This document shows positions 51,028 to 56,221 of a DNA stretch of 64,000 bases, in pieces (positions within the stretch are counted from its first letter, which is position 1; every line of letters begins with the position of its first letter). The notes beneath the pieces were generated by a model. It saw nothing but the letters and a program-made list of their open reading frames with translations. It made no database searches and had not been told where the DNA came from. The translations under genes were made by a program, and so were the position numbers. Source of the stretch: Escherichia phage phi G17; sequence record NC_070870.1; one strand, given 5' to 3'.

Positions 51028-51357
51028 TTAAGATTTAACGCAAGGGTATGCTTTGTGGATTGCCACATTAATCATGTCAGCAGGATGGTTCAGTTTTTGG
51101 ATAGTTGCATCCAACAGAATCTCATCTGCTACTTTGTGAAGTACATGCTTAAGCTGGATACCTTCTGGTACGCAGTTATCGGTAATATCCACAGCCATGG
51201 ATACCATACCCATGTAATAACCTTGGCTCGTATAATCAGGTGTATCGTACTTGTAGGCTTTGGCAGCAGCTTCCAGCAAGGTTGCACGACTAGATGCTTG
51301 AGCACCGAATGAAAGAGCTGATAGAACCACTACAGCAACAGCAATTAAAGTTTTCAT
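51028..51357 (-). CDS. secreted/periplasmic small protein (signal peptide)
   Basis: N-terminal MKTLIAVAVVVLSALSFGAQA signal-peptide-like sequence; 109 aa with two Cys. Confidence 0.45.
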   Translation of the reverse strand: MKTLIAVAVVVLSALSFGAQASSRATLLEAAAKAYKYDTPDYTSQGYYMGMVSMAVDITDNCVPEGIQLKHVLHKVADEILLDATIQKLNHPADMINVAIHKAYPCVKS

Positions 51358-51543
51358 TTAGTTACCTTTTAACTCGTTGAGTTGAAGTACTCCGGTAGGG
51401 GTTAATGACCACCCAAGACCGGCATTGAACTGTACTAAGCCCAGCTTCTTAAGAGACTGTGCGGTTTTGTTATTACGGTTGCTGGTGGCAGAACCACCTT
51501 GAACCATGCGAATGAAGATTACTTGGGACTGGGTAAGTTTCAT
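51358..51543 (-). CDS. hypothetical small protein
   Basis: 61 aa ORF. Confidence 0.3.
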   Translation of the reverse strand: MKLTQSQVIFIRMVQGGSATSNRNNKTAQSLKKLGLVQFNAGLGWSLTPTGVLQLNELKGN

Positions 51544-51728
51544 TTTTTCTCCGGTACGAACTGCATTACGCAGTTTTGATTACGAGGGATACTCAATTCA
51601 CATTCATGCTTGAGGGTTTGCGTTACAGAATTTGGTGTAGGACCAAAGTAGTTATTATTAATAGCTACAATTCCTGCACCAATGAACCCACCTAGTACGA
51701 ATGAGAAGAATGCAATCTCTTTGTACAT
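51540..51728 (-). CDS. small membrane protein
   Basis: 62 aa; FFSFVLGGFIGAGIVAI hydrophobic helix. Confidence 0.35.
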   Translation of the reverse strand: MYKEIAFFSFVLGGFIGAGIVAINNNYFGPTPNSVTQTLKHECELSIPRNQNCVMQFVPEKK

Positions 51729-51753: not shown

Positions 51754-51782
51754 AAAAAAAGACCTCCTATTTCTAGGAGGTC
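51754..51782 (-). terminator. rho-independent terminator (minus orientation)
   Basis: GACCTCCTA-TTTC-TAGGAGGTC perfect 9-bp stem; A7 on plus strand. Confidence 0.65.
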
Positions 51783-51831
51783 AAACTTGAGGGTTTCGTG
51801 TCAGGGTTTATAACCCCAAATAAGAACTCAA

Positions 51832-52428
51832 TTACAGAGCAGAGTAGGCTAATTGTAGCGTAGTAGATACACCATCTTTGGTAATAGTCAGTTCTGCATC
51901 ATAAACCCCAGGGCTTGGCTCAGTGCCCCACTTATAACTGATTACCCCGTAACCTAAGGTTGGTTCCAGTTTAATATCATAGGAAGCTGCTGCTTCCCCT
52001 TCCACAGCAAGGGTGATGGTTCCAGTTGAACCAGTAGGCTTAGGTACTACACGGAGGTAGCGTACACCTTCATATACATCCAAAGTCTCCCCGTCTTGGT
52101 ACAGGCGGGAAATTTCCTCTGTTTCCGGGTCATAGCGATAAACATCAAACCCAACTGGTACAGGGTCTGAGCCGGGAACTACTTCATAGATATCCCAGTC
52201 GTTAAGGTTGGTCAGGTTGTCCGGGAAGAATGCAGTCTGAGCTACATTTCCACCGTTACGGAAGTAAGCAATCTTACGGATACCGTGCCAGATAACATAA
52301 CTATCCGGGTAGGTAGCATCAGGGTGTTCAAATGAACCGATAGCTACAAAACCATCCTCCATAGAGGGAGAGGTTGAGTAGTTAATTTTCTTGGTAGATT
52401 GTTGAGCAGATACATATACAGTTGGCAT
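51832..52428 (-). CDS. beta-rich protein, possible capsid decoration protein
   Basis: 198 aa, Gly/Thr/Val-rich; N4 is recalled to encode its decoration protein (gp17) just after RNAP II genes; tentative. Confidence 0.3.
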   Translation of the reverse strand: MPTVYVSAQQSTKKINYSTSPSMEDGFVAIGSFEHPDATYPDSYVIWHGIRKIAYFRNGGNVAQTAFFPDNLTNLNDWDIYEVVPGSDPVPVGFDVYRYDPETEEISRLYQDGETLDVYEGVRYLRVVPKPTGSTGTITLAVEGEAAASYDIKLEPTLGYGVISYKWGTEPSPGVYDAELTITKDGVSTTLQLAYSAL

Positions 52429-52429
52429 C

Positions 52430-53671
52430 TTAGATTTCCTCTTTGTATGACATGCCTAAGTTGGCAGCGAAGCCCATATTATTGAACTGAAGGTTAATGT
52501 TACCACCAACTGGTTGCATATCCACAACGTCGGGTGATGCCAGCATTACTGTAGTTAGGGAGAGGCTATCAGCCAGTATCTGTACATTTGACAGAGTACA
52601 ATTCTCATTTGATGAGATTCTGATTGAGTGGTAATACGCACCACTCGCAGAAGATTCAATCATTACTTCTTGGTCTGTTATTGGTCCCATCAGGATATGT
52701 GTACGAGATGCCCCATTAGGACTCATAAACTTAATAACCATAGAACCTGCTTGAGAAAGGGTAGTTGTGAACCGGATGGCATTGTACTTACTAGAATCAG
52801 TTGCTCCACCCGGATAGGTTAATTCCAGGTATTCATTAGCATCATCATTACCACCGGTATACGTAGCAGTACCTGCTGAGTAAGTCCAGGTAGCTTTAGA
52901 AGCAGAAGCTGTAGGAGTAGCTGGAGTACCTCCCATAATGCGTTTATAAGCTAGCAGGTCTACTGGAGTACCACTGGTTCCAACGTAGTCCTTAAAGCCT
53001 CTGTAACCTATCAGGAAGCGTAAATACTTCTGCTCAGGTAATTGCTCAAACTTCAGGGAAAACACACTGGAGTTCTCTGTATTGGATACAAACTCTGCAT
53101 CCACAACAGGATGTTCTTTATCAATGATACGACCAATCAGTGGTGTAATTGGTTCATCTGCTTCCACTATAAGGTCTGCCTCTTCCAGAGTGAGGTTGGA
53201 ACCAATGAAGATAGCTGCCCAGCATACCCAGTCATTAGCCTGAGTATAGTAAGCCAACTGGAGAGGCTCACCTCCATGCGTTGCACGTAATCCTTGTAAA
53301 CCTTGGCTCATTTCTTTACGACCTGTAACCATAAGGATGCAGTTCGGATAGGCCATAGTGTAAGGCACAGTGTATGAGGTCAGTCTGCTCTCGCTGGTAT
53401 TGAAATCCATTGGACCTGGTTCCAGTGGCTCAGGGCCAGATTGAATCATACGGATAGGATAGTTCATTGCATCATCTTGCCCATCTCTGTACAGGAGGTC
53501 TTGAACGTGATGGAACATGACATGGTTAAGCGGATTGCCTAAAATATCTTGTCCTTCTTCATGATGGTATTCCCCAATAGGTACATACCCATCAAGACCG
53601 GCATTCACCTCATAGGGAACTACGGCTATAGCTTTAGGCTTATCTGATTTAAACACTTTACGGTTTGGCAT
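52430..53671 (-). CDS. hypothetical beta-rich protein
   Basis: 413 aa ORF abutting the next gene. Confidence 0.4.
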   Translation of the reverse strand: MPNRKVFKSDKPKAIAVVPYEVNAGLDGYVPIGEYHHEEGQDILGNPLNHVMFHHVQDLLYRDGQDDAMNYPIRMIQSGPEPLEPGPMDFNTSESRLTSYTVPYTMAYPNCILMVTGRKEMSQGLQGLRATHGGEPLQLAYYTQANDWVCWAAIFIGSNLTLEEADLIVEADEPITPLIGRIIDKEHPVVDAEFVSNTENSSVFSLKFEQLPEQKYLRFLIGYRGFKDYVGTSGTPVDLLAYKRIMGGTPATPTASASKATWTYSAGTATYTGGNDDANEYLELTYPGGATDSSKYNAIRFTTTLSQAGSMVIKFMSPNGASRTHILMGPITDQEVMIESSASGAYYHSIRISSNENCTLSNVQILADSLSLTTVMLASPDVVDMQPVGGNINLQFNNMGFAANLGMSYKEEI

Positions 53672-53723
53672 ACTTCGTACCCTCTTTTAGTTGTATATGC
53701 ACGAGAGAGTATACAGTGGAAAT

Positions 53724-53755
53724 AAAAAAGCCCCACACTGTTTAGGTGTGAGGCT
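53724..53755 (-). terminator. rho-independent terminator (minus orientation)
   Basis: AGCCCCACAC / GTGTGAGGCT stem (one mismatch); plus-strand A-run. Confidence 0.5.
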
Positions 53756-53759
53756 AGTT

Positions 53760-53978
53760 TCAGCTGTTGATGCAGTATATCCAGTAACCTATCCATCCTG
53801 CTAATACAAAACAAGCAGCAGAGTAAGCACCATAGTATTGCAATGGTTCCTTCTCTTCGTGTGCTTTAACGATTGTTATCAATACAATGCCTGATAAAAC
53901 TATCAGGATTACCTTAGTAATTACTTCATAAGTAAATGGCATGTTGACTACCTCCAAGCAAAAAATAAAAGGCCCCAC
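53760..53978 (-). CDS. small membrane protein
   Basis: 72 aa; two hydrophobic helices. Confidence 0.4.
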   Translation of the reverse strand: MGPFIFCLEVVNMPFTYEVITKVILIVLSGIVLITIVKAHEEKEPLQYYGAYSAACFVLAGWIGYWIYCINS

Positions 53979-54129
53979 TCCCGAAGGAATGAGGCCAGTT
54001 TATTAACACACTTTCACAGTCCAGCCTTTGTAAGCATCTATAAAGGCAATCCAGTCATCTTCTGCCCATAGTCTAGAACAAACTCCTGGGGCTTTAAATC
54101 TATATAAACCTTGTCTATAAGCTTCTTTT

Positions 54130-55347
54130 TTAGCTAAGGGCATAATCGGTCTCCAGAATGTCTTGCCAGAGGCTGTCATCCAGCTTACCAGCAGAGAACT
54201 CTTGTCCCAGTACCTGAGACAGAATGAAGCCTAGCAAGTCACTCTTAGCAATGTCAGACAGAATCTGATTGTACTGACGACGCAAGTCATTGCCATAGTT
54301 AGGATGGCAACGGAAGCAGTCATGTACGGTCATTACAGGGAATGATTTCTTAGGCATGGTATTGAGCATAGCCATGATTACATCCGTATCAACCAATGCA
54401 ATTGTTTCTGAATCCAGGTAGTCAAAGATACGAGTAGACAGGAAGCCTGACTTCTCATAGCTAGCCCACAGTGTGTTAACCATTTCATAGTTATCATCAG
54501 AACCAACCATGTAATCACTAGTTCCTTCACAGAGTGACTTAACATAGCTCACCTGGTTCATGTCGAAGTTACAACGACGCAGCATCTCACGTACCACCAT
54601 CCCATCAATAGAGTGGGTGATGTTAGCAGAGAGCATACGAGTCTTCTCTTCAGTACCCTGAACCATACGAGTGATGTCGAATGGTTTACCTAAGAAGTTA
54701 ACAGTCTGTACTTCAGGAACCATGACCTTAATGACAGCATGATAGTTGTCAGGCAGTACCCATACGTATCGGTTAGCATCCGGGTTACCACATTGCAGTA
54801 AGAACTTGTTCAATGCCCAAGGCCCACTAGCAACAGTTTCCATTACATTCTCAAAAGTCTTGAGACGGATACCTTCTCCGAATACTTCTTTAGGCTTAGC
54901 TTCTGAGCCATAGAACGCAGTCATAACTGCCTGCTTAGTGTCACTACGTTTGATGCGAGATGCTTCGCCAAGGATATCCAGCATCTTGTGGTAGATAACT
55001 GTATAAGCATCACGGCGTAATGGCTTACCATTTTCTCCCATGTAGTTAACTACGTTACACAGTTCGGCAGCAGAACGATCACCAGTCAGACAGGCTAATA
55101 ACTGTAAGCCAGATGATGTAGCATCCAGAGCTACGGTATAGCCAATAGGCTTACCTGCTTTCATATCTTTCCATGCGTTTACACCTGCATAGAACAGTGC
55201 AGATTCTTCAGCCTCATCTACCAGATTAAGCAGATTAGCTTCATTCTCATCGAACCAGCTAATACGTTCATCCCATGTCTTCTTATCTAAGCCATAGTTG
55301 TTAGCAATATCTACTTTCAGGTATTCACGGGCAGTTAACAGTTGCAT
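54130..55347 (-). CDS. T7-like single-subunit RNA polymerase, catalytic subunit (N4 RNAP II gp16-like)
   Basis: ALDATSSGLQ (motif A, cf. T7 FDGSCSGIQH), RSDTKQAVMTAFYGS (motif B), MTVHDCF (motif C); 405 aa. Confidence 0.8.
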   Translation of the reverse strand: MQLLTAREYLKVDIANNYGLDKKTWDERISWFDENEANLLNLVDEAEESALFYAGVNAWKDMKAGKPIGYTVALDATSSGLQLLACLTGDRSAAELCNVVNYMGENGKPLRRDAYTVIYHKMLDILGEASRIKRSDTKQAVMTAFYGSEAKPKEVFGEGIRLKTFENVMETVASGPWALNKFLLQCGNPDANRYVWVLPDNYHAVIKVMVPEVQTVNFLGKPFDITRMVQGTEEKTRMLSANITHSIDGMVVREMLRRCNFDMNQVSYVKSLCEGTSDYMVGSDDNYEMVNTLWASYEKSGFLSTRIFDYLDSETIALVDTDVIMAMLNTMPKKSFPVMTVHDCFRCHPNYGNDLRRQYNQILSDIAKSDLLGFILSQVLGQEFSAGKLDDSLWQDILETDYALS

Positions 55348-55402
55348 TTTATGTTCCTTAGCGTCTTGAGCCTATTGGCTCGCATAGTGGATTAATAAGT
55401 GG

Positions 55403-56221
55403 TTAGTCTTCGTTTACTAATTCTTTATCAGCGAACTCCAGTACAGCTTTGTTGTAACTGGTTCCTTGATAGTTGATGTGATAGCCCTGAGCGTAAGTAC
55501 GCCCACGTTTATCGAATTTGTGACCTAGTGAGAAGTTATTACCCTCTTGGGTCACTAACTCCATTACTTCCTTAGCAGTACGGCTGTACTTCTCAAAGGC
55601 TTTGACACGTTTCTCATAGTCCTGACGGGTTTCACCCTCTTTAGGTTTATCCATGTTAGGACGGGAGTCTTTTACATAGTTAGCAACGTCCCAGTTAATA
55701 CAGAGACGTTGGTTGTTCATACGGTTGATGTGGTCAAGACAGACATCCATCTCATGATGGTTCTTCTTGAGGATGATTGAGCCTTTGGACTCATAGTAAC
55801 CAGTATCCCGGTTAGTCAGGACAGGCTTAGGTTTACTTACGATAGGCAATGGATACTGGAATGCCTCCAGTTCCATCTGAACATCTTCACTAATCTCATA
55901 GATAACACCGAACTTGTCGATGGTAGGGTCATAGTTGAAGCAGTCATTCTCTGCCATCTTATACAGACAGTCAGCGATATACTGAGCATCATCTGAGTGA
56001 CTCATGAGAGAGCCAATCATAGTCTGAATGTCAGCACGTTTATGTAGGGCAATCTGCACCATTGCATCAATGAGCAGCTTATAATCAATTTCCAGGTAGG
56101 CAGCGAATGCCTTAAAGTCAATTTCTTTGGATTCCTCGAACTCTTTCCTCATGCGAGGCAAAAGTTGATTCTTATTAAATAGTTTTTCGAGGGTTTTCTG
56201 GTGCTCAATGGATGCGTACAT
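55403..56221 (-). CDS. RNA polymerase II small subunit (N4 gp15-like, N-terminal T7-RNAP-like part)
   Basis: 272 aa ORF immediately upstream of the catalytic subunit; size matches N4 gp15 as recalled. Confidence 0.5.
   Translation of the reverse strand: MYASIEHQKTLEKLFNKNQLLPRMRKEFEESKEIDFKAFAAYLEIDYKLLIDAMVQIALHKRADIQTMIGSLMSHSDDAQYIADCLYKMAENDCFNYDPTIDKFGVIYEISEDVQMELEAFQYPLPIVSKPKPVLTNRDTGYYESKGSIILKKNHHEMDVCLDHINRMNNQRLCINWDVANYVKDSRPNMDKPKEGETRQDYEKRVKAFEKYSRTAKEVMELVTQEGNNFSLGHKFDKRGRTYAQGYHINYQGTSYNKAVLEFADKELVNED

Follow-up and report, generated by a model that had tools for sequence, protein, structure and literature searches.

Escherichia phage PhiG17 is a Gamaleyavirus, a G7C-like and N4-like podophage from cattle faeces that was isolated on E. 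coli O157:H7, and the locus considered here is a pair of adjacent minus-strand genes in a 64,000-nucleotide (nt) stretch of its sequence record (NC_070870.1), the whole of which is referred to as the window. The two open reading frames (ORFs), of 413 and 198 amino acids (aa), had been proposed in a first-pass annotation made from the sequence alone, and are confirmed at their positions (Table 1). A single base separates the stop codon of the 413-aa gene from the ATG of the 198-aa gene, and each start is preceded at a distance of 8 nt by an AGAGG-type Shine-Dalgarno sequence. The pair lies downstream of the genes for the two RNAP2 subunits (55403..56221 and 54130..55347), as had been stated, but does not directly adjoin them: two small ORFs, of 58 and 72 aa, intervene, as do two terminator-like hairpins. 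In the database, the 413-aa protein is a 100% match to "hypothetical protein PP764_gp52, Escherichia phage phi G17".

Table 1. Features at the gp17 slot of PhiG17 (positions in the window)
Feature	Position	Strand	Description
Replaced cassette	51825..53761		1,937 bp without DNA homology to G7C; the gp17 segment of G7C is about 0.9 kb
Terminator-like hairpin upstream of the pair	53729..53755	-	10-bp stem with 6 GC pairs, then TTTTTATTT (T-run)
413-aa gene	52430..53671	-	ATG start; 45.3 kDa, isoelectric point (pI) 4.8; diverged gp17 paralogue
DI-like domain, long-loop subtype	53438..53671	-	Residues 1-78 of the 413-aa protein
Conserved core beta domain	52934..53437	-	Residues 79-246 of the 413-aa protein; PGPxD, ATHGGE, LTxE and GRIxD motifs, defining the family
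C-terminal jelly-roll-like beta domain (predicted)	52433..52933	-	Residues 247-413 of the 413-aa protein
198-aa gene	51832..52428	-	ATG start; 21.8 kDa, pI 4.35; short gp17 orthologue, by homology
Canonical gp17 DI	52189..52428	-	Residues 1-80 of the 198-aa protein; HPDATYPDSYVIWHG motif
Orphan beta domain (predicted), clade-restricted	51835..52188	-	Residues 81-198 of the 198-aa protein
Terminator-like hairpin downstream of the pair	51761..51782	-	9-bp stem, then TTTTTTT

The slot occupied by the pair is that of gp17, the capsid decorating protein, of which G7C, NAN33P5, ShWW44 and E20 each carry one of 273-277 aa, and N4 one of 279 aa, followed by a separate gene for the 104-aa gp18, annotated as superinfection exclusion. 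Like the gp17-type genes, the pair belongs to the early/middle arm, where it comes shortly after the RNAP2 genes; its location away from the structural module, which had been singled out as unusual, is real but not odd, being normal for gp17 in N4-like phages (PMC6950046). Homology to G7C in blastn ends at window position 51824 and starts again at 53762, the proteins encoded by the genes that flank this interval are 92-97% identical to those of G7C, and for the major capsid protein the identity is 97.25%. The breaks in homology fall at the cassette edges, and the gp17 segment of about 0.9 kb has therefore been precisely replaced by a cassette of 1.94 kb; by these alignments, a two-gene cassette is shown to have taken the place of the single three-domain gp17 of typical Gamaleyaviruses.

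Substitution patterns indicate that both ORFs are genuine genes under purifying selection. Against orthologues from independent metagenome contigs (65-97% identity), the Nei-Gojobori ratio of nonsynonymous to synonymous substitution rates (dN/dS) of close relatives is 0.08-0.15 for the 413-aa gene and 0.12-0.19 for the 198-aa gene, and is low in every domain, with about 0.06-0.12 in the segment of the 413-aa gene that resembles DI, the N-terminal domain of gp17; spurious ORFs and a gene-calling artefact were rejected on these values. Similarly, the reading of the pair as one frameshifted gene was rejected because each ORF has its own DI and its own Shine-Dalgarno sequence, and because the layout is kept in at least 7 loci. 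Terminator-like hairpins flank the pair, as annotated stem-loops flank gp17 at the equivalent places in G7C, and no strong hairpin was found between the two genes in the scan, in which only a 5-bp stem without a T-run (52373-52356) appeared, inside the 198-aa ORF. With hairpins on either side and none of strength in between, the pair looks like one transcription unit, and the two genes are probably co-transcribed and translationally coupled. Shuffled sequence gave more sigma-70 promoter sites than the real sequence did, and such a scan says nothing about N4 middle transcription.

Virion presence of the gp17 type is documented in the relatives N4, Moo19 and KP8. In the N4 capsid, determined at 2.45 Å (PDB 9E99), which has T=9 symmetry, three gp17 are found per asymmetric unit, with DI at the quasi-3-fold axes, DII on the P-domain of the capsid protein and a flexible DIII (PMC11768535); Moo19 gp28 is among the listed virion proteins, and the electron cryo-microscopy map was modelled for its first 183 residues (PDB 9d7z; PMC11654681); gp26 of Klebsiella phage KP8, a protein of 171 aa with DI and one immunoglobulin (Ig)-like domain, was identified in the virion by matrix-assisted laser desorption/ionization time-of-flight (MALDI-TOF) mass spectrometry (PMC6950046). 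The PhiG17 pair is like N4 gp17, G7C gp17 and Moo19 gp28 in its slot, in the capsid platform and in an N-terminal DI, which is strong in the 198-aa protein and weak in the 413-aa protein.

The similarity of the 198-aa protein to this group is extensive in its N-terminal part. It is 39% identical to G7C gp17 (E 8e-19), its DI matches those of Moo19 gp28 (9d7z_J, E 1.6e-14) and N4 gp17 (9e99_J, E 5e-14), its family aligns with the gp17 family in hhalign with a probability of 98.6%, and a hidden Markov model (HMM) of the canonical DI scores 97 bits. Among the PHROGs, it matches phrog_2973 ("Hoc-like head decoration", E 2.7e-8) and, as the other match, phrog_38673, of unknown function. In tblastn, the protein matched 111 N4-like phage records at 40-51% identity, over residues 1-80 to 1-98 only and at one DI place per record, so multi-DI loci appear uncommon in isolates at that sensitivity. 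No Pfam or PDB sequence match was obtained for residues 81-198, nor any similarity to DII or DIII of gp17 in hhalign, and this orphan C-terminal domain of about 118 residues is common only to the close clusters P0008-P0010. Its AlphaFold2 (AF2) model is all-beta, with about 8 C-terminal strands at a predicted local distance difference test (pLDDT) score of about 33-66 and a model mean of 46.5, too poor for a judgement of fold, and was left out of the fold search. Taken with its position, these homologies identify the 198-aa protein with high confidence as a gp17 orthologue with a swapped display domain, so that the earlier proposal of a capsid decoration protein in the N4 gp17 slot holds for this member of the pair. 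In one of its orthologues (L014:2739-3335), a second, partial match to the canonical-DI HMM was observed (residues 89-122, HMM positions 2-36), a hint at an origin of the orphan C-terminal domain by partial duplication of DI.

The N-terminus of the 413-aa protein, which had been left unassigned, resembles the same domain at a lower level. In BLASTP, it aligns with residues 1-62 of G7C gp17 at 28% identity (E 2e-5) and with the 198-aa protein at E 1e-3; the profile of its family reaches N4 gp17 (9e99_J, residues 12-78) with a PDB-scale E of 0.044, its hhalign comparison with the gp17 family alignment gives E 3.6e-5 and a probability of 71%, and an HMM built from canonical gp17 DI only matches residues 15-68 with 20.1 bits (E 4e-6), where, the 198-aa protein aside, all other six-frame ORFs of the window score at most 1.3 bits. 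These four comparisons (BLASTP, PDB profile, hhalign and DI HMM) place the N-terminus in register with gp17 DI, and the common pattern reads MP-beta-beta ... G(F/Y)xxIGx(F/Y)xH ... (N/S)(H/Y)V(I/M)xxHx(V/I)(R/Q)xxxY. The canonical HPDxTYPDS loop is replaced in the 413-aa protein by a longer, acidic loop, and phrog_2973 is not matched. The signals are weak but consistent, and point to the 413-aa protein as a diverged DI paralogue of gp17, a homology that is treated here as established.

The remaining ~330 residues of the 413-aa protein form a unit of their own. The whole protein has no Pfam match with E values up to 1 and no PHROG match, and tblastn found nothing for it in 50,697 phage records; pattern scans of IMG/VR with family alignments found no relatives, scans of viral contigs with P0021 and P0015 returned the gateway domain alone or nothing, and tblastn with P0028 and P0021 matched their N-terminal adaptors and not the module. 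Exhaustive HMMER searching with the family profile recovered 32 proteins among 1.84 billion representatives, in most of which the match covers query residues 1-106, that is, residues 80-185 of the protein. The family alignment defines a unit of about 330 aa with the motifs PGPxD, ATHGGE, LTxExA and GRIxD at ~20% identity, in which D89, G133 and R181 are invariant and H132, E163 and D184 nearly so. This unit is modular in its distribution: it is free-standing in P0020, follows a DI-like N-terminus in P0015 and P0026, from two other N4-like lineages, follows the neck "gateway" domain of E217 gp29, beside the gp28 collar gene, in P0021 and other N-terminal adaptors of ~80 residues in P0030, P0040, P0041 and P0044, and stands at the N-terminus of proteins of ~1000 aa, one of them with a tail-protein PHROG. 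In one contig (L022:331-2242; SRR28413681), the module is C-terminal to an E217 gp29-type gateway protein, directly after the gp28 collar gene, an arrangement that would imply a decorated neck in a PB1/E217-like myophage. A marginal match of the family profile to the PDB sequence of "neck fiber gp82N" (E 0.013), together with antibody noise, was not relied on.

Structure prediction gives an all-beta model for the 413-aa protein as well, with a mean pLDDT of 60; the beta domains at residues 85-190 and 250-367 have values mostly of 56-88, and the core strands at residues 89-183 of ~55-82. Both models agree with the expectation of two beta-rich proteins, at moderate confidence for the 413-aa and at poor confidence for the 198-aa protein. 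In Foldseek, the top PDB neighbour of the 413-aa model is a Bacteroides surface glycan-binding protein, and the BFVD neighbours are an N4-like Achromobacter phage protein, tail fibres, CenC-like carbohydrate-binding module (CBM) proteins and receptor-binding proteins. This fold-level evidence, of moderate quality, suggests that residues 80-413 are a lectin-like display module. Of the Ig-like or jelly-roll folds that had been proposed as a check, the C-terminal domain of the 413-aa protein is predicted to be jelly-roll-like, and no Ig-family Pfam match was obtained for either protein. The Gly/Thr/Ser/Val-rich composition on which the first-pass annotation had relied is modest for the whole proteins (29.1% in the 413-aa and 34.3% in the 198-aa protein versus 26.5% in the long ORFs of the window, of which the 75th percentile is 29.2% and the 95th 38%) and is clearly raised only in the C-terminal domains (35.7% and 37.8%, respectively). 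Signal peptides and membrane segments are lacking in both proteins, whose Kyte-Doolittle maxima are 1.34 and 0.55, compared with 2.0-2.8 in small neighbouring ORFs.

The order of a long gene of 413-416 aa followed by a DI gene of 198 or 180 aa recurs in the window and in loci L004, L005, L013, L014, L016 and L017, and in every recovered locus with a 413-family gene a DI-bearing gene of 198 or 180 aa comes directly after it. In a further locus (L015:3001-4249; SRR19416399), the long gene appears as overlapping ORFs of 263 and 163 aa, through either a pseudogene frameshift or faulty assembly, and the contig ends within the next DI gene. L008 and L009 (L008:113-1880; SRR21291448/9), from a distant lineage, carry a 404-aa gene with DI and module and, 10 nt later, a 180-aa gene whose product has a sub-threshold Big_2 match (19.1 bits versus a cut-off of 22.8) and a weak DI likeness (E 1e-4 to the L004 short protein; the canonical DI HMM is not significant); this tandem is followed by an AAA ATPase gene and a T4 Y07C-like gene, on contigs too short for phage classification. 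A 73.8-kb N4-like contig (L019:4176-9224; SRR29078211) has three DI-bearing genes after RNAP2, encoding, in order, 799 aa with phrog_18498 at the C-terminus, 169 aa with a Big_2 Ig-like domain, and 407 aa with the ~330-aa module, and a stretch of ~0.9 kb without a called gene precedes the third of them.

The interpretation favoured here, with a probability of roughly 0.6, is that the cassette encodes two capsid-decoration paralogues that give the head a mixed coat, with a lectin-like module on one of them. We infer that both proteins would be cytoplasmic and co-expressed as middle-region products, as proposed from their genome position, and that both would be incorporated in the virion by docking through DI on the finished T=9 shell. 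The 198-aa protein would display its small orphan domain on the head, and the lectin-like module of the 413-aa protein would mediate weak adhesion to a glycan, such as a host surface polysaccharide or gut mucus, in the manner proposed for Hoc-type and other head adhesins; DI may also add some capsid cementing. The two DI subtypes may be in competition for one set of ~180 sites, or may each occupy different ones of the three non-equivalent positions.

Several points weigh against this interpretation. The only PhiG17 publication is a genome announcement without proteomics or structure, and the DI likeness of the 413-aa protein is weak by identity, hhalign probability and PDB-scale E value alike; since its HPDxTYPDS loop differs, this domain may bind another site or no capsid site. 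As regards the models, that of the 198-aa protein is unusable, and that of the 413-aa protein, besides its low mean, is unreliable at residues 192-247 and 369-413. CBM-like beta-sandwiches are a very common fold, and the CBM structural matches are not assignable to either single domain of the 413-aa protein. The ~330-aa family is absent from Pfam and PHROGs and has no member of tested function. The conserved core (residues 80-185) lies at the extreme N-terminus of the ~1000-aa relatives, the usual site of the attachment domain in fibre proteins, and these relatives have the C-terminal phrog_18498 in common with the 799-aa DI protein of L019; the role of the core might therefore be protein-protein docking or oligomerisation instead of ligand binding. 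The conserved D/H/E/R/D residues would also fit an enzyme.

Some of these points lead to different explanations of the 413-aa protein. If only the 198-aa protein decorates, the 413-aa protein could be a middle-expressed protein absent from the virion, with its DI-like part a relic or in use for some other interaction. The weak DI similarity with a replaced HPDxTYPDS loop and the location of the gene in the non-structural half of the genome agree with this; nevertheless, gp17 itself sits in the same region in all N4-like phages, the strong purifying selection on the DI-like segment and the persistence of DI and module fusions in three divergent N4-like lineages argue against a relic, and the module is joined to virion proteins in other phages, so this explanation is considered unlikely. 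Alternatively, the 413-aa protein could be on the virion, not on the shell but as an accessory fibre or receptor-binding protein of the neck or tail, consistent with the fusions of the module to the neck gateway protein and to tail-protein domains, with the marginal gp82N match and with Foldseek neighbours that are mostly tail fibres and receptor-binding proteins. This is held to be quite unlikely, as the N-terminus resembles the capsid anchor DI and not any N4 tail or neck adaptor, the gene is paired and coupled with the gp17 orthologue, and no tail-attachment domain is seen in the protein, with no match in Pfam or PHROGs.

The ~330-aa module could also be an enzyme displayed on the head, for example one that modifies or depolymerises polysaccharides, and the preservation of D89, H132, E163, R181 and D184, invariant or nearly so across a family of ~20% identity, would agree with this. 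The prediction of nothing other than beta-sandwiches, the non-catalytic CBMs and glycan-binding proteins among the top structural neighbours, and the lack of a match to any catalytic Pfam family make this improbable. For the receptor-blocking or superinfection-exclusion factor that the first-pass annotation had offered as the role of one of the two proteins, a precedent of position exists in the gene annotated as superinfection exclusion directly after gp17 in N4, and likewise in some Gamaleyaviruses, but in N4 this gp18 is a separate gene. Both PhiG17 proteins carry a capsid-anchor domain and lack export signals and membrane segments, no exclusion family was matched (nothing in Pfam for either protein, nothing in PHROGs for the 413-aa protein and only phrog_2973 and phrog_38673 for the 198-aa protein; PADLOC was not searched), and the small membrane or secreted ORFs that flank the pair are better candidates; the suggestion is thus unsupported and, for the decoration pair, hardly credible.

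Compared with known decoration systems, the two decoration paralogues proposed for PhiG17 combine familiar elements in a distinct arrangement. Canonical gp17 is one gene of 273-279 aa with DI and two Ig-like domains, whereas PhiG17 has two genes, in neither of which DII or DIII is detected (hhalign aligns DI alone) and for neither of which an Ig-family Pfam match was obtained, unlike G7C gp17, which matches Ig_3 and I-set; in place of the Ig domains, the cargo is the orphan domain in the 198-aa protein and the ~330-aa CBM-like module in the 413-aa protein. KP8 gp26 is a two-domain, short gp17 like the 198-aa protein, with 49% identity over DI; its C-terminal domain is a recognisable Big_2, while that of the 198-aa protein matches no family, and no second DI gene is reported for KP8, where PhiG17 has two. 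With T4 Hoc and other head adhesins, the proposed principle is alike, namely a non-essential head protein with an anchor and outward binding domains. Nevertheless, Hoc has a C-terminal anchor and an Ig-like display, where PhiG17 has an N-terminal DI and a CBM-like jelly roll; there is no sequence relationship, and neither protein has a Hoc or Ig Pfam match, "Hoc-like" being a PHROG annotation only. Shigella phage Sf14 is described as having a T=9 capsid with decoration proteins of two different types, an earlier example of a single head of this size with two such proteins (PMC11821841); those proposed for PhiG17 are tandem-encoded paralogues with one anchor type. Compared with CBM29, CBM8, CBM22, CBM32 and Bacteroides SGBP-B, the 413-aa module has ~10% identity, its model is of moderate confidence and has no identifiable ligand-binding residues, and it matches no curated CBM family (Pfam, E up to 1). 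In the literature searched, neither tandem decoration paralogues on one anchor nor a CBM-like module of ~330 aa on a gp17 anchor was found.

Decoration proteins affect capsid stability and adherence to hosts or mucus, and are used as display scaffolds in phage engineering. If the favoured interpretation is right, a near-unchanged capsid (97% to G7C) that carries two paralogous decorations would show that DI can serve as a transferable anchor for foreign domains as large as 330 residues or more, PhiG17 would be a test system for the partition of non-equivalent capsid sites between competing ligands, and an uncharacterised, probably glycan-binding module would be seen to be moved by phages between head, neck and tail; in addition, the "hypothetical protein" annotation would be corrected for this gene, which belongs to a phage put forward for biocontrol of O157:H7. 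Should neither protein be on the virion, the locus would be an ordinary variable accessory locus. A broader and more tentative reading, to which somewhat less than an even chance is given, is that the gp17 locus is a plug-and-play capsid display, in which a DI anchor of ~75 aa would carry interchangeable cargoes (Ig-like domains, the orphan beta domain, the ~330-aa lectin-like module and an extension of ~700 aa). A single T=9 head would co-display two of them in the PhiG17 clade and L008, and three in L019, and each DI subtype may favour some of the three non-equivalent gp17 sites per asymmetric unit. The ~330-aa "PGPxD/ATHGGE" unit would then be a new, mobile adhesin module of the virion surface, common to heads, necks and tails of unrelated phages.

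The small neighbours of the cassette have features of their own. Predicted membrane proteins of 72 aa (53760-53978, minus strand) and 62 aa (51540-51728, minus strand) flank it, with Kyte-Doolittle maxima of 2.78 and 2.34, and are conserved in Gamaleyaviruses (phrog_12530 and phrog_7508); they are more plausible than the decoration pair as candidates for exclusion or another membrane-acting function. A 109-aa ORF (51028-51357, minus strand), equivalent to G7C gp17.3, has a signal-peptide-like N-terminus, a match to phrog_11132 and a sub-threshold Pfam match to Rap1a, a type VI secretion immunity family (E 2.6e-4; 21.9 bits, cut-off 27.7); an immunity-like or exclusion function in the periplasm is possible. 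The 58-aa ORF (54003-54179, minus strand), as listed, overlaps the 3' end of the gene for the RNAP2 large subunit (54130-55347) by 50 nt; since its PHROG and Pfam (DUF5484) matches start at residues 12-17, its true start is probably the internal Met13. Between the RNAP2 subunit genes, where G7C has the HNH homing endonuclease gp15.1 (L001:5192-5773), the window has just a 55-nt spacer (55347-55403), and in related loci HNH genes have been gained or lost around gp24 and gp25.

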